64,000 bases of DNA. It comes from a virus. The position numbers and the translations under genes were made by a program. Position 1 is the stretch's first letter; each line of letters opens with the position of its first letter. Shown piece by piece: positions 2,814 through 55,318 of this stretch. The stretch spans positions 64,001 to 128,000 of IMG/VR virus record IMGVR_UViG_3300032241_002679; one strand, written 5' to 3'. The notes beneath the pieces are model-generated. The model had not been told where the DNA came from. It did no database searches and saw nothing but the letters and a program-made list of their open reading frames with translations.

Positions 2814-4112
2814 ATGAATATTGAACAAATATTATCAAATTTAAAAGATTATATTAAAAACAATAAACCAAAATATTTGTATAATCAATCATTTATTGCA
2901 GGTAAAAGTCAAGTATTATACTCAGGGCCATATTGGGATGAAGCTGAAATAATTGCGGCCATAAATACTTTTATTACTGGTAAATGGGTAGTCGCTGGTG
3001 AAAATGTCCATAAATTTGAATCCACTTTTGCTAAAATGTTTTCTGTTAAGTTTGCTCACATGGTAAATTCTGGAAGTTCAGCTAATTTAATACTCATAGC
3101 TGGGCTTAAAAAATATTTTAATTGGGAAGATGATGATGAGGTAATTGTATCACCAGTAGGATTTCCAACCACTATTTCCACATTAGTACAGAATAATCTA
3201 AAACCAGTTTTTATAGATATAGAATATAATACACTTAATTTTGATATAACTAAAATAGAAGAAAAAATAACATCTAAGACTAAAGCAATTTTTGTATCAC
3301 CAGTATTAGGTAATCCACCAGACATGGATTTTTTAACTAGTTTATGCGAAAAATATAATATTAAATTAATTGGTGATAGTTGTGATAGTTTAGGTACTAA
3401 ATGGAATGGTAAACATTTAAGTAATTATTATGTTGCGTGGTCCTCATCTTTTTATCCAGCTCATCACATTTCAACTGGTGAGGGTGGTATGGTATGTACT
3501 GACATAAATGAACTAAATAAATTATTTATTAGTTTTTCATGGTGGGGTAGAGATTGTTATTGTGTCGGGTCATCAAATCTTTTATCCTGCGGTACTTGCG
3601 GTAATAGATTTGATAAATGGCTTGATTCATATGATGGAATTATTGATCATAAATATGTTTTTACAACTATGGGATATAACCTTAAGCCGATGGATTTACA
3701 AGGTTCTATAGGATTAGTTCAACTAACAAAATTTGATGAAATAGAAATAAAAAGAAAAAACAGTAAATGTAGAATTGAATCTATTTTACTAGAAAACGTA
3801 AATAATTTAAAAGGTGTCACAACACTTACTAATGCTGATGTTTGTTGGTTTGGTACCCCCTTTATTTGTGATAATAAAGAAATGAAAAATAAATTAGTAA
3901 CATTTTTAGAGGAAAATAAAATACAAACAAGAAATTATTTTGCGGGAAATATTCTCATGCATCCAGCTTATAGACATTTAGATGATTTAACAAAATATCC
4001 AAATGCTAATCAGGTATTAGATAATGTATTTTTTTTAGGAGCTGCGCCACATTATGATGAAGAAATTTTTAATTATATAGAAAATATTTTTAAAGAAAAA
4101 TGGATAAATTAA
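2814..4112 (+). CDS. rfbH: NDP-4-keto-6-deoxyhexose 3-dehydrase (RfbH/DdhC, E1-type; DegT/DnrJ family)
   Basis: NSGSSAN, SFYPAHHISTGEGG (His replaces the PLP Lys), GRDCYC...TCGNRF Fe-S cysteines. Confidence 0.88.
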   Translation: MNIEQILSNLKDYIKNNKPKYLYNQSFIAGKSQVLYSGPYWDEAEIIAAINTFITGKWVVAGENVHKFESTFAKMFSVKFAHMVNSGSSANLILIAGLKKYFNWEDDDEVIVSPVGFPTTISTLVQNNLKPVFIDIEYNTLNFDITKIEEKITSKTKAIFVSPVLGNPPDMDFLTSLCEKYNIKLIGDSCDSLGTKWNGKHLSNYYVAWSSSFYPAHHISTGEGGMVCTDINELNKLFISFSWWGRDCYCVGSSNLLSCGTCGNRFDKWLDSYDGIIDHKYVFTTMGYNLKPMDLQGSIGLVQLTKFDEIEIKRKNSKCRIESILLENVNNLKGVTTLTNADVCWFGTPFICDNKEMKNKLVTFLEENKIQTRNYFAGNILMHPAYRHLDDLTKYPNANQVLDNVFFLGAAPHYDEEIFNYIENIFKEKWIN

Positions 4113-48640: not shown

Positions 48641-49609
48641 TTAGAATATCCTATTGAAAAAATTACCAGTGCCTAAAACTAATGTACTTTGACCTATTTC
48701 ATAACCATTATTATATACCGAAATGTTATAATCTCCAGCTATTAAATTTTTCTGTGGTAAAGCAAATTGGATACGTTTTGTTTTTTTAGTCTCAATATTT
48801 ACTGGTATCTTAGTGGTAAATGATTTATCACCATCCTCACGTGTTGTGAATGTACCAGAATTTAAAGTCTCATCAGTAACTACATCACCACTAGGGGTAG
48901 TCAAAACAATGTGTAGCTCAGTCTGTTTGTTTTCTATAATTCTATTGTAGACATCAAATGAAATCAAAAATTCATCAATCTTTTTAGCTACATCACTTCT
49001 TTTTAATTTACCATTGTTCTTCTTGTGTACTGGAACAATAAGAATATTATTTGCGACTAGAGTTGAGGCAACATCCACAGTTTTCTGTAATTGCTCATTA
49101 ACTTGGTTACTCACATTAAGGCTAGAGTCTGATACTTCTTTTTCTTTAATCAAACGTCCATTATTCTCTTTTAAAGTGGCAACTTCAACGTGAAGAGCAC
49201 CAACTTGATTATTCAATTCTTTAATTAAATCCTCAGCCTGTTTCTTTTCAGCATCAGTTAAGTTCTGTTTATTTAACAATGAACGAATTTCATTCTTTAA
49301 CTTAGAAATTTTTGAATTTTTATTATTCAATGCAAGACTTAGCTTATCGTTAAGACTGTTAGCTGAATCCAATCTAATTAATGCGTTATCAAAATTTTTC
49401 TGTAGATCGGTCTTTTCGCTCTCAACTGTGACAATTTTTAATTCTTGCTTAACTGTCTGAATACGTTGACTAGTTATATAGTTATATGCGAAAATAAAAA
49501 CAACTATGTTTAGCAATAATAGGGATATAATTATCCAATAGTTCTGAAAAAAATTCTTTTTGTTTCTCTGAAGTGTTTCCTGTGTAGGAGCGTTTTCTCT
49601 GTTTATCAT
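48641..49609 (-). CDS. membrane-anchored coiled-coil protein with C-terminal Ig-like domain
   Basis: N-terminal TM, heptad repeats, beta-sandwich-like end. Confidence 0.7.
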   Translation of the reverse strand: MINRENAPTQETLQRNKKNFFQNYWIIISLLLLNIVVFIFAYNYITSQRIQTVKQELKIVTVESEKTDLQKNFDNALIRLDSANSLNDKLSLALNNKNSKISKLKNEIRSLLNKQNLTDAEKKQAEDLIKELNNQVGALHVEVATLKENNGRLIKEKEVSDSSLNVSNQVNEQLQKTVDVASTLVANNILIVPVHKKNNGKLKRSDVAKKIDEFLISFDVYNRIIENKQTELHIVLTTPSGDVVTDETLNSGTFTTREDGDKSFTTKIPVNIETKKTKRIQFALPQKNLIAGDYNISVYNNGYEIGQSTLVLGTGNFFNRIF

Positions 49610-49965: not shown

Positions 49966-50397
49966 TTATTTCTTTCCAAAAACTACAATCATACTATCAT
50001 GCATTCCAGCCTTATTCTCGACATATTCACCCTTCGTGTTCATACCTAAAAATTTTACTCTACCCCTAAGAAATCTAATTTCTTCAGCGTTTGGTTTAAT
50101 GTAATCATGAAATAATTTGGTAGATGTACTTACTGGTAAAAGCATGACGCATAATTTACCCCTCTTACTCATTTCAATATCCCTCTTTACAAAAGCTTCC
50201 TTCAATTGTCTTGAATACGGTGGATTAATATAATTTCTTTCGCCCCACTCTATTAATAACCCATCATTCTCTTCAGTTATTTCACCTAGGTTTAATGGAC
50301 ATGGATCGAAGTCAAAATTGAATTCTTTATTTAGCTCGTCATATAAATAAGGTGGAGTTGCCCAATTATCACTATGCTTTAAATTTCTATTTTTCAA
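49966..50397 (-). CDS. phage DNA N6-adenine methyltransferase (Dam-like)
   Basis: WATP, FDFDPC, YINPPYS, IRFLRGRVKF. Confidence 0.85.
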   Translation of the reverse strand: MKNRNLKHSDNWATPPYLYDELNKEFNFDFDPCPLNLGEITEENDGLLIEWGERNYINPPYSRQLKEAFVKRDIEMSKRGKLCVMLLPVSTSTKLFHDYIKPNAEEIRFLRGRVKFLGMNTKGEYVENKAGMHDSMIVVFGKK

Positions 50398-50451: not shown

Positions 50452-50572
50452 ATGGCAACAACAGCAAATTCACCCTATAAAGTCTCCTTTGGTAGAAGAA
50501 AAGGCGGCAAGGCTAAAAAATCATATAATAAACACGAATCTAAAAAAACAATATAGAGGCCAAGGTCGCTAA
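50452..50572 (+). CDS. small basic late peptide (34 aa; +1 frame continues to YRGQGR)
   Basis: TATTTAT 50429, ATG 50452, TAG 50554-56; +1 frame ends at TAA 50572. Confidence 0.55.
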
Positions 50573-51342
50573 TTACTTAATGGTGCTTTAATTGCTGGAT
50601 GAGATTTATAATTATCTAATTTGAAATCATCTGGGTTTAAATGGTTATATAGTGATTGATCCCCTGATAATGATTTATAAAAAACATCTGTCTTACAATG
50701 TACTAATTTTGGTAATTCAAATGGCATCCTATTAGAATAGGGGATATTATTACAATTCATCCACCAATTAATTATTCCTTCAGTAAATGGACTTAAATTT
50801 CCAAACTCATCTCTTTGTTTTTCCGTTAAAAACTCTCTACGTTCTTCCCAAGATAATTTACCAATTTGCTCCTTAGCTTGTTCAATATGATTTAGGTATA
50901 AATGAGTGTCACCTAAATTACCAATCAATTCATCAGGCACCATATTCACAATTTTTGCAATAATCTCTAACAGTAAACCATAAGATGCTATGTTAAACGG
51001 CAAACCGAGAAAAGTATCGATGCTTCTCATATTGAATATCAAAGAGATTGCTCTGTATTTTCCAGGATTAACTATTTTTTCATCCCTTGTGGTTGGTCTG
51101 GTATAAACTTGAAATCCGTAATGACAAGGCGGTAAAGTCATTTCTGTTAGGTCATTGACTGCCCACGCATTAACAATTAACCTACGAGAATCTGGATTTT
51201 CTTTTAATTGTTTAATCAAATCAGATATTTGGTCTATACCTTTGTTTCCAAATTCTTTATTGAACTCAGCATCGGTTTCTAACTTTTTTAAGAACTCTTC
51301 CTTCGTAAAAGGTGTCCCATCTTCGTGTGTGTATTTATTCAT
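50569..51342 (-). CDS. thyA: thymidylate synthase, C-terminal fragment
   Basis: IDQI, PDSRR, LPPCH, RSIDTFLGLPFN, DTHLY. Confidence 0.93.
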   Translation of the reverse strand: MNKYTHEDGTPFTKEEFLKKLETDAEFNKEFGNKGIDQISDLIKQLKENPDSRRLIVNAWAVNDLTEMTLPPCHYGFQVYTRPTTRDEKIVNPGKYRAISLIFNMRSIDTFLGLPFNIASYGLLLEIIAKIVNMVPDELIGNLGDTHLYLNHIEQAKEQIGKLSWEERREFLTEKQRDEFGNLSPFTEGIINWWMNCNNIPYSNRMPFELPKLVHCKTDVFYKSLSGDQSLYNHLNPDDFKLDNYKSHPAIKAPLSN

Positions 51343-51346
51343 AACT

Positions 51347-52039
51347 TTAATTTATATAATACCAATTTTTATACCTCTCTTTGAATTTTTCTGAACGAAA
51401 TCTATTTAATAATCTATCTCGCATAGTACATTCATTTATATTGAAAAAATCCGCAGCTTCCTTTGCCGATTCAAATTCAACACCATCTATTGAACATCTT
51501 TTGTTTGACGTGGACGGTAATTTCTTTCCTTCATATTTTTTTTGTTTATCATTATTGGCCTTGGTTGATATATGATATCCATTAAACCGACCAGGTAACC
51601 AACCTTCTAATTTAATTCTTTCATCATTTGGGAAAGTTCTTAAATTAGTCCCATTTAATTTATGATACCATTTGGTTCCAGTTAATCTTTCTTTAATTGA
51701 ACTTATTTGGGTTTCAGATGGTTTAAATTTTTGCCAAACTTCTAACATTTGATGTTTAGCATATTCATATATTCGAGATGAAGGTCTATACCTTTTCTGA
51801 TTGTCAGAAGAACGACACATTGACCAAAAAGAATATCGTAAATCTGTATTATTGGGATACATTTCGTGTAATAACCAATGACATAGAAAATGCTCTCTTG
51901 CTGTTAGTTTTACTATGTTATCTGAATTATTAGTTCCATTCATACATTTTGGGATTATGTGATGTTTTTCTGAATATCCACCCAAATTTCTACTTTTTGC
52001 TCTTTCAATTATTTGATTGTAAATTTTTCTGTAGTTCAT
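51347..52039 (-). mobile_element. free-standing HNH endonuclease interrupting thyA
   Basis: EKHHIIPKCMNG...NIVKLTAREHFLCH; C-terminal NUMOD1/HTH-like; own TATTTAT at 52063. Confidence 0.88.
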
Positions 52040-52090
52040 ATATTCTCCATTGATTACCGTATATAAATATGGTAAAAAATAGAAAACATA

Positions 52091-52648
52091 CTATTTCGTT
52101 TGAACTTTTTTCAAATAATCTTCGTATAGTTCGTCTTTTGTTTTTCCACTCCAATTACGCCACTGGAATCCGTATATTTTTCCGAGATCACCCCACTTCT
52201 CGGCAAATACGTTATCAGTTTTGATTTTCTCGATGAATTCTTCTTTACTAAAAAACCCATCTATTTTAAAATCCCCCCATCCTTCAATTTTAGTCCCACT
52301 AACTTCCAATGGTTCACTACTTTTGATTTTAAAATCATATGGATTAGAAGAAAACATTGCACTATCCAAATATTTCTTATAAGCATCACCATCCCAAATG
52401 TGACAATCGTTATCAACCAGATATTTTATGTTGGTATCGCCTCTCAAAAACCATAGTAATTCAGTAACGATTCCCTTAAAATGCATTTTCTTTGTAGTTA
52501 ATAATGGAAATTTACCATCTTTAAATTTGTATCTAATAGACCTACCAAAGACACTTAAAACTTTACCGTTTCGGGTGTTTTTCTCAACCCCATTTTCTAA
52601 TATATCCTCTAAAAGGTCTATATATTGTTTGTCTAATCCATTTTTCAT
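52091..52648 (-). CDS. thyA: thymidylate synthase, N-terminal fragment
   Basis: [27 protein letters not shown]. Confidence 0.93.
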
Positions 52649-52858: not shown

Positions 52859-53476
52859 TTATTTATCAACTACTTGATACATAAGCTTATTATCCTTTAT
52901 TATTTCAATATAATAAACATTTCCAAAAGTCTTATAATATTTAATTCCATCAATTATAACAATTTTAGCATCTTCTGGTAAATAAGATACTATTGCACCT
53001 ACTGGAGGTTTAACTACTTCATAATTTCCATCACTTGTTTGGTCATAATAAATCCCAGAATAGTAATAATAAGGATAGCCGTTATAGAAAAATGCCCAAT
53101 AACCATATGGTAAACCACCAACCAAAAATCCAAATGGTGGATATATTAAACTATAATATGAATTATAATACAATCCATGGTAAAAAAAACAATTGGCGTT
53201 TGCAATACGAACACTTACGCCACGATGTGATATTACTCTCATCATATGCCTGTTTACTACAACATCCCTGTTACCATAGTTGTGTTGTCCATTGTTATAA
53301 GTATGCTGACCATTATATCCGTTATTATAGGTACGTTGTGTATTATTATAATGCGATGCTTCATAATGAGGCGCATTATAGTGTGGTGCACTATAATGCG
53401 ATCCATTATTATTTCTCTGTGCATTTAAAGAACTAATTATTAATAGAGCTAAAAATAAATTTACAATCTTTTTCAT
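52859..53476 (-). CDS. secreted Tyr-rich protein (DUF6515-like)
   Basis: Signal peptide, HY.AP repeats, YYYYSGIYY...VVKPPVGA. Confidence 0.7.
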   Translation of the reverse strand: MKKIVNLFLALLIISSLNAQRNNNGSHYSAPHYNAPHYEASHYNNTQRTYNNGYNGQHTYNNGQHNYGNRDVVVNRHMMRVISHRGVSVRIANANCFFYHGLYYNSYYSLIYPPFGFLVGGLPYGYWAFFYNGYPYYYYSGIYYDQTSDGNYEVVKPPVGAIVSYLPEDAKIVIIDGIKYYKTFGNVYYIEIIKDNKLMYQVVDK

Positions 53477-53530
53477 AATCTTTTTCTTATAAATATACAC
53501 AATATTTCAGCAACGTTGGTTAATCGGATG

Positions 53531-55318
53531 TTAAAAGGTCAATGTTACTTTTACTGTATTAAAATATGTTATTGTTTTGTCCTTATGAATTACACTTAGT
53601 CTAAAGTAATGATAATGTGGACTAGTTGTCTTATTTATTCTTGCAGCATCAACAACTGTTGAATCTGCATTAGAGGCTAATGAGTTATCTTTAGTACATG
53701 AGAACAATCCTATCATTAGAATAATTGGTAATATTAAAAATAATTTATTACGTCTCTTAAATGATATTCCAAGAATCAATAAACCAAATCCAGCAATTGC
53801 AACAGTAGCAGTTGTTGGGGTAAAGAAGAAATAATAAGGACCATAATTAATGGTACTAGTTGATGTTCCCTTAGTTGCTTTAGTTGCAACTGTTTGATAT
53901 CTTACCCAAGTACTATTATTAGAAGAAGAATCCATTACCCATAGGCTATCATTTCCTTCTTTGGTAGCAGCCCAAGTAAATTTAATTCTTCCAGTTGAAT
54001 CATTAACACCAACTAATGTTGCAAGAGTTGTATCATTAACTGCTGGTGGTGGCGGTGGTGGTGTTGAACCACCATATGAAATTGCACCTAAATCTAATGT
54101 TGCTGGATTATGATATAAATCCTGAGTTCTCCATGATAATGCTACTCCAGCATTTATGGCTGGGCTTCCAGCGACCAATTTACCAGTACTTGGATCTAAT
54201 ATACCAGTAGCACTTGCATTAGTTAGATTATTACTAAATACCACTGGATCACTAGCTGCGTTATATACATCATTACCCATATCTTGTGAGCCAACATTTA
54301 AATTATTATAGACATAATACGTTGCACCCGCATGACCAAATATAACTGCTGCTGCAGTAGTATATGTAAGAGGATCTAAATTTCCAAATTGGGTATTATT
54401 ACATATGTAAGCATTAGCGGATGTTACCGAACCCCCAATATTACTGCTACTTGCTCTAATATCGACAACACCATAACAAGTAGTATTCAATTTTAAATTA
54501 TTATATACATATGTCGTACCCTTTCCATTTAATGAAATTGATTCAAGTCTTCCAACATATCCCCATAGTGAACCCTGCATAATTATTGAACTGACACTAC
54601 CATACCCCCCAACTCTTATCATACCAATATCGTCTGTGGCGGAACTATTTGTTCCACCTATAGTCCAATCATGGAAATTATAATTCCACATATTATAACC
54701 AAATATAAGACCATCTCCAGTTGTCATGTTCTGAATTTGTGCATTATATATTTGTAGGCCAAAACTGGAAGAATGAAGTGTTGTTGTTGCATCCCATGTT
54801 CCGTATAGAATATGAGCACTATTACTCATTGAAAAATTTGCTAGTGTAAATTGATTAAACATTAATGTGCTACTATCAGATAAATTCCAAGTGCCACCCT
54901 GACTACCACTGAAATCAATTAAATCACCAGAATTAACTGTTTGAAAATATTGGATACTTGAATGGTCAGCAATATGACCAGATCCGATTTGAAATACATT
55001 ACCATTGTAGGTAAAATTAAATCCGTATTGGAGACCAGATGTTCCATTACCCATTAAGTTAACATAACTCCATGGGCCAATGTTAACTGGGCCAGTACAA
55101 GTAACTTGACCACCCTGATTAACAATTGTAACATTGTTTATGTTCTGCAGTGTAATACTGGAATACGTACCAGCTTGAATAATTAGGACATCATTCGGGT
55201 TAATTCCCGTCATTGATGTCACCGAAACGGTCCCTGAACCATTACCAACAACAATATTATTGGCGAATGAATTTAGGGATATAAATCCTAGTAAAATAGC
55301 AAAAATAAGTTTTTTCAC
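53531..55318 (-). CDS. secreted parallel beta-helix protein with membrane hairpin and lipobox
   Basis: Signal peptide, N/G/S/T-rich repeats, AGSPAINAG, P6 linker, two TM helices, LFSC. Confidence 0.7.
   Translation of the reverse strand: MKKLIFAILLGFISLNSFANNIVVGNGSGTVSVTSMTGINPNDVLIIQAGTYSSITLQNINNVTIVNQGGQVTCTGPVNIGPWSYVNLMGNGTSGLQYGFNFTYNGNVFQIGSGHIADHSSIQYFQTVNSGDLIDFSGSQGGTWNLSDSSTLMFNQFTLANFSMSNSAHILYGTWDATTTLHSSSFGLQIYNAQIQNMTTGDGLIFGYNMWNYNFHDWTIGGTNSSATDDIGMIRVGGYGSVSSIIMQGSLWGYVGRLESISLNGKGTTYVYNNLKLNTTCYGVVDIRASSSNIGGSVTSANAYICNNTQFGNLDPLTYTTAAAVIFGHAGATYYVYNNLNVGSQDMGNDVYNAASDPVVFSNNLTNASATGILDPSTGKLVAGSPAINAGVALSWRTQDLYHNPATLDLGAISYGGSTPPPPPPAVNDTTLATLVGVNDSTGRIKFTWAATKEGNDSLWVMDSSSNNSTWVRYQTVATKATKGTSTSTINYGPYYFFFTPTTATVAIAGFGLLILGISFKRRNKLFLILPIILMIGLFSCTKDNSLASNADSTVVDAARINKTTSPHYHYFRLSVIHKDKTITYFNTVKVTLTF

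Follow-up and report, generated by a model that had tools for sequence, protein, structure and literature searches.

A thymidylate synthase gene in two parts

We analyzed a 64,000-nucleotide (nt) stretch of viral DNA, referred to here as the window, in which the thymidylate synthase gene thyA is divided between two open reading frames (ORFs) with an HNH endonuclease gene between them. The window spans positions 64,001 to 128,000 of the IMG/VR virus record IMGVR_UViG_3300032241_002679, which is 141,843 bp long and has an estimated completeness of about 40%. The order on the minus strand is ThyA-N, a 51-nt spacer, the HNH ORF, a 4-nt spacer, and ThyA-C (Table 1). An earlier note on this DNA, made from its letters alone, had given the same coordinates, strand, spacers and break point, and the ORF calls and Pfam searches agree with it. 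The N-terminal half contains the phosphate-binding Arg (TRNG), TELLWFL, IWDGD, the small domain, and the YGFQWRNW strand. The C-terminal half contains DSRR, the catalytic Cys (LPPCH), MRSID, FNIAS, GDTHLY, and the C-terminal IKAPLSN. The catalytic Cys and the motifs that bind deoxyuridine monophosphate (dUMP) are all intact in the window, shared out over the two halves. Between them the halves cover both parts of PF00303 (Table 1), so the enzyme is complete and nothing has been lost at the break. Both are far above the cut-off, and the C-half has an additional, weaker C-terminal stretch of PF00303. The best relative of the C-half with a solved structure is the T4 thymidylate synthase (1tis, 2.1e-31).

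Each half carries an extension at the break. ThyA-N runs on past QWRNW as a tail, and ThyA-C begins MNKYTHEDGTPFTKEEFLKKLETDAEFNKEFGNKG-IDQI, that is, with a head of 34-35 residues before IDQI. Below, we describe the tail and the head as the first and second arms of a helical hairpin. The HNH protein has an HH..N..H motif at residues 24-50 (EKHHIIPK…N…LTAREH) and, at its C terminus, a weak I-TevI-type DNA-binding domain (PF20987, 1.1e-4, below the cut-off). Its gene is present in a single copy in the 141.8-kb record. The Pfam HNH model gives a match only for a clade-B relative, just below the cut-off, and a sequence search found no relative of the window's HNH protein with a solved structure.

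Table 1. Features of the split thyA locus, in window positions.
Feature	Position	Strand	Remarks
ThyA N-half gene	52091-52648	-	185 amino acids (aa) and TAG; PF00303 positions 1-108, 9.8e-37; phrog_160, 3e-35
Native small-domain helix 1, counterpart of the tail	52361-52390	-	collinear in hhalign of the hairpin against the small-domain profile; helix 84-94 in the P0121 model
Native small-domain helix pair, counterpart of the head	52181-52252	-	BLASTP, shuffles, hhalign
Tail, first hairpin arm	52094-52150	-	19 residues past QWRNW; conserved in all split loci
51-nt spacer, N-half stop to HNH start	52040-52090	-	part of the inserted cassette; no Rfam match
Free-standing HNH homing endonuclease gene	51347-52039	-	230 aa; phrog_655 'homing endonuclease', 1.6e-44
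4-nt spacer AGTT, HNH stop to C-half ATG	51343-51346	-	end of the cassette
Head, second hairpin arm	51238-51342	-	MNKYTHEDGTPFTKEEFLKKLETDAEFNKEFGNKG; near-invariant across loci
ThyA C-half gene	50569-51342	-	257 aa and TAA; PF00303 positions 105-224, 8.5e-47; phrog_160, 3.6e-58

The break bears none of the marks of an intron or an intein. Rfam found neither Intron_gpI nor any other intron or plausible RNA model in the locus at E<=10, and no introns in nine related loci at the gathering threshold; a group I or group II intron was rejected on these results. Pfam found no intein or Hint domain in either half. The tail and head lack intein blocks, and the junction ends are not intein-like (a tail of 19 aa, and a head that closes ..FGNKG/IDQI). 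An intein or split intein was rejected, as neither its domains nor its motifs are present. The intron-less split with an HNH gene in the gap, as described in the earlier note, is thus upheld by the ORFs, the phrog_655 match and Rfam.

Phage thyA and td genes are classic hosts of group I introns, and one relative (P0124) has a true intein elsewhere in the gene. Cryptic splicing, whether through an unrecognized intron, a split intein, or ribosomal bypass, could in principle give back one continuous ThyA. However, in addition to the negative searches, only 51 + 4 nt (55 nt in all) lie outside ORFs at the junction, and the content of the gap varies among related loci: two HNH lineages, a GIY-YIG gene, extra ORFs, or 100-590 nt without an endonuclease. 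In these loci a stop follows every tail and a Met opens every head. Varying contents between such constant ends argue against any splicing, and we consider a spliced ThyA highly improbable.

The TAG stop of the N-half is in frame with the ATG of the HNH gene in the window, with 17 sense codons between them, and its read-through could yield a functional ThyA-N/HNH fusion. TAG is rare in the window, closing 3 of the 58 ORFs of at least 150 aa, yet it ends 28 of the 38 distinct N-halves of the family. However, the reading frame is open in only 4 of 38 distinct junctions; 14 others are in frame with further stops, and 20 are out of frame. The TAG belongs to the inserted cassette and not to the host gene (see below), and it is frequent among N-halves because the cassette has common descent. 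The in-frame TAG pointed out in the earlier note is thus real but not conserved, and it is best read as a coincidence. A read-through fusion was rejected on the lack of a conserved open frame, and we regard its probability as close to nil.

The hairpin and the insertion point

A search with the joined tail and head revealed unsplit ThyAs in which the two are contiguous and in frame. These are P0121, P0122, P0123, and the more divergent P0126 (P0122, P0123, P0126, and P0204-P0206, some of which are discussed below, were examined as proteins only). The earlier note had taken the tail and head for new termini and had proposed a comparison with unsplit relatives. That comparison finds the hairpin contiguous, with the endonuclease sitting in its loop, and so the two ends are not new.

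The insertion point can be read directly from a pair of alleles. P0121 is encoded by loci L130 and L131. An HNH gene is present in locus L132, which comes from a TARA sample and belongs to the same phage lineage. The fused L130 and the split L132 are 100% identical in DNA over about 120 nt around the junction, and the HNH cassette is inserted exactly between GTT (Val) and ATG (Met). With a slash at the insertion point, the fused allele reads …AAAAAAGTT/ATGAAATAT… and the split allele reads …AAAAAAGTT/AAAGATAAGTAG-(leader, HNH)-TAAAGTT/ATGAAATAT…, with AAAGTT repeated at both ends of the cassette. Through the cassette, the first arm gains three codons and a stop, and the second arm starts at a pre-existing Met. 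The window has the same layout as L132 (…KKV-QTK-TAG … TAA-AGTT-ATG). With the insertion point after ..KKV, the last three codons of its tail (QTK) and the TAG stop lie inside the cassette. The remainder of L130 and L132 is 90-100% identical, save for a patch of 53-67% identity located 130-340 nt downstream of the junction, and this mosaic is of the kind left by recombination with another allele. Uninterrupted alleles of the candidate homing site, free of the endonuclease, thus exist both in this lineage (P0121 in L130-L131, versus L132) and as P0122, P0123, and P0126.

Two further observations concern these relatives. The C-halves of L132 (2995-3705) and L122 (2974-3813) have DDRG for DSRR and LRPCHNFFQF for LPPCHYGFQV, and these altered dUMP-phosphate and active-site loops may reflect a different substrate or drift. 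P0124 (779 aa), an unsplit ThyA that also bears the hairpin, has a LAGLIDADG intein directly before the catalytic Cys (…MVLPPC/FTEG…HN/CHYGFQ), with precomputed Pfam domains PF07591, PF14528, and PF14890.

The arms of the hairpin resemble helices that are present elsewhere in ThyA. The echo of the head, which the earlier note had recognized, is found by BLASTP between residues 133-156 of the N-half and residues 12-35 of the C-half (11/24 identities, E 2e-4), and none of 5000 shuffles reached its score. For the tail, a profile of 36 tails picks, on its own, the collinear WDGDAYKNY position (P 0.006). When the tail and head of 36 distinct loci are combined in a joint profile, this profile is collinear with that of the small domain, including TKEEFINKIKTDDEFAKKWGELG (hhalign, P 8e-12, probability 97.5%). 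The tail echo claimed in the earlier note is thus seen at the collinear position in the profile but not in the single sequence (see below). The broader claim, of a second copy of the small helical insert divided over both ends, agrees with the joint alignment, and the collinearity indicates that tail and head together are a diverged second copy of the small-domain helices.

A structure prediction of the fused allele gives a similar picture. In the AlphaFold2 model of P0121 (30-sequence alignment; mean predicted local distance difference test score, pLDDT, 75.7), the tail helix (143-152) and the head helices (167-176 and 178-184) have pLDDT values of 79-88, or 83-88 for the head helices alone, and they mirror the native helices 84-94, 107-116, and 118-124. 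The best solved matches to the model in Foldseek are thymidylate synthases of the L. casei type (3ik1, 4tms, and 1lca, E about 1e-22). These enzymes have a native helix pair of the same small-domain type (…EEFIxKIKTDxxFAxKWGDLG), but they are single-chain and lack a second hairpin between the QWR strand and the DQI helix.

Distribution, selection and turnover

The split is no isolated case: it is found in many loci, with several endonucleases and at two or three positions in ThyA. Among the best 120 database matches to the C-half, about 85 are themselves C-halves that share its head, and most of these 120 matches (213-320 aa) cover the whole query, head included. With a DNA pattern for the head junction we identified 18 viral contigs, and scanning by peptide yielded 80 contigs from metagenomes of lakes, oceans, and TARA samples. 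The ThyA cores of these loci are 45-65% identical to that of the window, and the ends are nearly constant. Dozens of loci from viruses and metagenomes, as well as more than 100 clusters of proteins, have this tail and head. Heads share the form M..HEDGTPFTKEEFLQKLKTDKEFNNEFGNKG-IDQI, with the consensus M..HEDGTPF[TS]KEEFLxKLxTDxEFNxEFGNKG. The tail consensus starts W[NGS]GK[ST] and closes with [VI]… and the stop. By these searches, the split thyA hairpin system recurs in hundreds of environmental sequences. It is absent from all isolated phages in a collection of 50,697 records, in which the closest ThyAs are unsplit, come from Flavobacterium phages, and are 42-44% identical. A full-text literature search found no papers on a split thyA.

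The gene in the gap differs from locus to locus. We surveyed 54 complete junctions in metagenome loci. An HNH endonuclease of the window's lineage (HNH-A, orthologues 47-92% identical) occupies the same place in 34 of them, a second HNH lineage (HNH-B, about 36% identical) is found in 8, and a GIY-YIG/NUMOD endonuclease is found at the same site in 6. Four junctions have no endonuclease, and the other two are fused, with no gap. L203, L205, and L208, which are in the GIY-YIG group, are closely related to the window's tail type, several loci have extra small ORFs behind the endonuclease, and the 51-nt spacer is kept among HNH clade-A loci. In some loci, remnants of the HNH gene lie beside intact ThyA halves: its C-terminal half in L160, its last 26 codons in L145, and its last 13 in L092. 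The two-piece state thus outlives its endonuclease. L091 and P0208 look like re-fusions through an internal deletion within the hairpin.

In the second HNH lineage (L170, L182, and L188), the C-terminal 70-90 residues are 38-42% identical to the DNA-binding region of a GIY-YIG endonuclease (that of L128). Unlike nuclease domains appear to have been joined to a common DNA-binding module in the HNH-B and GIY-YIG endonucleases at hairpin sites. In T4-like phages, free-standing endonuclease genes replace one another in position, for example segH/hef replacing mobC/mobE. Here, too, unrelated nuclease families (HNH and GIY-YIG) are found in one genomic slot, but the slot is internal to a coding sequence, with a module at the protein level on its borders.

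Both arms are conserved as protein. We estimated the ratio of nonsynonymous to synonymous change (dN/dS) by the Nei-Gojobori method over 15 non-redundant loci. The head has an amino-acid identity of 0.87 with a synonymous distance (dS) of about 1.5, which is saturated (proportion of synonymous differences, pS, 0.65), and a dN/dS of 0.04. Saturated synonymous change together with a dN/dS this low indicates that selection acts on the protein. The tail has a dN/dS of 0.15, and segments of the catalytic core have values of 0.085-0.20. By this measure, both arms are under protein-level purifying selection that at least matches that on the active site.

The tail and head could instead be conserved chiefly for the sake of the endonuclease, by providing its recognition or homing site in the DNA or expression signals for the cassette, with the halves associating, if at all, through the normal ThyA fold. 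Such a role would fit the last 21 nt of the tail (GAAGATTATTTGAAAAAAGTT), which are invariant over HNH-A, HNH-B, and endonuclease-free loci. It would also fit the I-TevI-type C-terminal DNA-binding domain that the HNH and GIY-YIG occupants share, and the fact that the hairpin always accompanies the endonuclease site. However, the pS and dN/dS of the head point to selection on the protein, the upstream half of the tail varies synonymously, and both arms are intact in loci without an endonuclease. In a scan of viral contigs, the exact 21-mer was also found in unrelated scaffold/protease-like genes that encode EDYLKKV (L210, L214, and L217), so it is not a clean signature, and codon bias may partly explain its invariance. 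We think it unlikely that the arms exist chiefly to serve the endonuclease, and we favor the reading in which they serve a ThyA made of two chains.

The hairpin is also found at other places in ThyA. In L123 and L128, the gene is split between AWNVxDLP and M[AV]LPPCH (site 3), and the occupant is of the GIY-YIG type (NUMOD3 and I-TevI DNA-binding domain above the cut-off, GIY-YIG domain just below). The tails of L123 and L128 end …DDKLYEDYLKQIG and …DDELYRDYLKDIGKS, each followed by a stop, and their heads begin MNKNYTHEDGTPFTKEEFLEKLKIDKEF… and MKTPLSKEEFLQKLKTDKEF…. L123 has an E. coli-type ThyA that lacks the small-domain insert. Although its core shares just 42-46% identity with that of the window, the two heads share 76%. 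Site-3 C-pieces make up more than 100 clusters in the protein database, and there are fused site-3 alleles (P0204 and P0206). Some genes are in three pieces. L175 has an HNH gene at site 2 and a 100-nt gap without an endonuclease at site 3, and L098 has a NUMOD1 endonuclease in the native small-domain loop together with an HNH gene at site 2. P0205 starts inside the native small domain (MRKYINEDGTPFSKEQFIDKIKNDKEF…GNLGPIYGKQWR) and is intermediate between the native helix and the head, which suggests that sequences flanking an endonuclease in the native loop gave rise to the module.

In a FastTree phylogeny of 131 C-cores, split and unsplit genes are interspersed, and well-supported branches force at least 10 changes of split state; given recombination in these genes, the tree shows scatter and not a count of events. 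By these comparisons, the hairpin arrangement is a widespread, horizontally moving module, present with an HNH gene, a GIY-YIG gene, or no endonuclease at two or three ThyA positions. We also suggest, tentatively and at slightly less than even odds, that the hairpin is a portable 'split-and-clasp' module. It would have arisen from the flanks of an endonuclease in the native loop (P0205 and L098 being prototype-like) and would have been carried with homing endonucleases to at least two other ThyA positions and into ThyAs of about 45% identity, its arms reassembling the broken protein without an intron or intein. If this is true, the hairpin would be a natural, transferable protein-fragment complementation tag.

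Some relatives are degraded. L215:5503-7871 is decayed: an 80-aa fragment has only the native helix, strand and tail, a stop breaks the HNH gene, and a site-3 head is joined to a truncated C-fragment. In P0224 (335 aa), a site-1 tail (GDAYQAYLKECEKLKK) is fused directly to a site-3 head (EEFLEKLKTDRDFNNRYGRKHITEGKMVLPPCH), and the YGKQWR strand, the IDQI helix, and DSRR have been lost. P0224 is probably a dead gene that resulted from recombinational deletion between hairpin copies. L127:1745-4307 contains a 3' N-half fragment with an intact tail, two unknown ORFs, and a head fragment (3001-3072), and these are followed directly by an intact unsplit thyA; the locus resembles what would be left of a split gene after its replacement by recombination.

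These degraded or deleted relatives (L215, P0224, and L127) would be expected if the insertion had simply inactivated thyA, leaving the ORFs as decaying remnants while the phage obtained thymidylate (dTMP) from the host or from another phage gene, and the incompleteness of the record leaves room for such a gene. However, both halves in the window are full-length with all of the catalytic motifs present, and there is strong purifying selection on the cores and arms across loci with 45-65% core identity. In addition, the split persists past the decay of the endonuclease, and neither ThyX nor a second ThyA was found within the 141.8 kb of the record. We therefore consider a dead gene very unlikely, and we return to the reading in which the two halves form a working ThyA.

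Proposed two-chain assembly and related systems

We propose, with a probability of about 0.78, that the window encodes a two-chain ThyA whose halves are joined by the hairpin arms, and that this state owes its origin and its spread to a homing endonuclease whose target, in alleles that lack the endonuclease, is the DNA encoding the hairpin. The thyA coding sequence has received a cassette in which three extra codons and a stop are followed by a 51-nt leader, then the HNH gene and a final 4 nt. The cassette sits in a loop, that of a helical hairpin which is about 55 residues long and is placed between the QWRNW strand and the IDQI helix. This hairpin is itself a diverged copy of the ThyA small-domain helices. 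With the insertion, ThyA-N ends in the first arm as its C-terminal tail, and ThyA-C opens with the second arm as its N-terminal head. Most likely, the arms pair again as a non-covalent clasp, enabling the halves to meet and form an active thymidylate synthase built from two polypeptides. Holding the halves together seems to be the most plausible role of the two ends, and from sequence we infer both that the chains assemble and that the arms mediate the assembly.

The HNH endonuclease is presumably active, with the hairpin-coding DNA as its target. It would spread by cutting endonuclease-free hairpin alleles and being copied into them during repair. Both the L130/L132 allele pair and the scattered distribution on the ThyA tree point to site-specific cleavage and homing.

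A free-standing homing endonuclease inside an essential gene should be lethal unless an intron or intein hides the insertion. To our knowledge, escape by means of protein tails has been studied in just one case, that of phage Aeh1 and its mobE-split NrdA; the nrdA-a/mobE/nrdA-b arrangement was reportedly described by Friedrich et al. in 2007 as 'genes in pieces'. This is the system closest to the split thyA, and the earlier note had also named it. In both, a free-standing homing endonuclease gene of the HNH type interrupts an essential gene of nucleotide metabolism and lies between complementary halves with their own stop and start; there is no intron or intein. Short extra termini are tied to reassembly in Aeh1. 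Apart from the protein involved (NrdA there, ThyA here), the two systems differ in their ends. The Aeh1 NrdA tails arose with the insertion, have unique sequences, and are essential for activity (PMC3045599; Crona et al. 2010), whereas the ThyA arms are a hairpin that is contiguous in endonuclease-free alleles and homologous to a native subdomain, and their role is read from sequence. They also differ in extent, as the split thyA comprises hundreds of environmental sequences, at least three endonuclease lineages, two or three positions, and three-piece genes. The authors of the Aeh1 NrdA work suggested that the tail mechanism might be general (PMC3045599).

Several observations weigh against our proposal. 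As a single sequence, the tail does not stand out as a copy of the native helix (shuffle p 0.09, with the best local match elsewhere). The last seven codons of the tail are invariant even at synonymous sites, and the invariance of these 21 nt could reflect a DNA-level role or codon bias and not a need of the protein. Some relatives (L215 and P0224) are plainly decaying or deleted, so not every copy is functional. It is possible that a second route to dTMP exists elsewhere in the genome, given that the record is about 40% complete. Lastly, the Aeh1 NrdA tails are dispensable for heterodimer formation and needed for higher-order assembly (PMC3045599). By analogy, the roles of the Aeh1 tails may make a simple 'clasp' reading of the ThyA arms too simple.

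Other thyA genes have been invaded in a different way. T4 td has a group I intron with I-TevI, and Bacillus mojavensis thyA has one with I-BmoI. These share with the split thyA the host gene, an I-TevI-type DNA-binding domain, and the expected homing into endonuclease-free alleles. However, their insertions are in the conserved active-site region, whereas the insertion here is in a surface hairpin loop. There is no ribozyme here, and thus the continuity of thyA is not restored at the RNA level, unlike in T4 td.

If our proposal is correct, the split thyA would be a second, much larger case, in which many environmental phages keep an essential enzyme as two or three pieces. The peptides that rejoin them would be traceable to a duplicated piece of the enzyme, would exist both with and without an endonuclease, and would recur at different positions. 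The origin of the tails, the cycle of invasion, decay and loss of the endonuclease, and the portability of the clasp are all directly testable by simple complementation. The clasp may also offer a small natural heterodimerizing pair for split-protein engineering. For annotation, such half-genes should not be labeled as pseudogenes or as 'thymidylate synthase' fragments.

The surroundings of the locus offer a few minor observations. Neighboring ORFs at 48641-49609, 52859-53500, and 53531-55318 of the window have no PHROG match, and a scan for promoters and terminators was uninformative (20 promoter sites versus 15 expected; no terminators). A phage-type DNA methyltransferase gene (phrog_111, 4.9e-40) lies directly downstream of ThyA-C, at 49966-50397 on the minus strand. 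Lastly, in the related locus L088, a full-length GOLLD RNA (RF02032, 259.6 bits, E 1.3e-72) is located at 1480-1883 on the plus strand, about 3.3 kb upstream of the split thyA.

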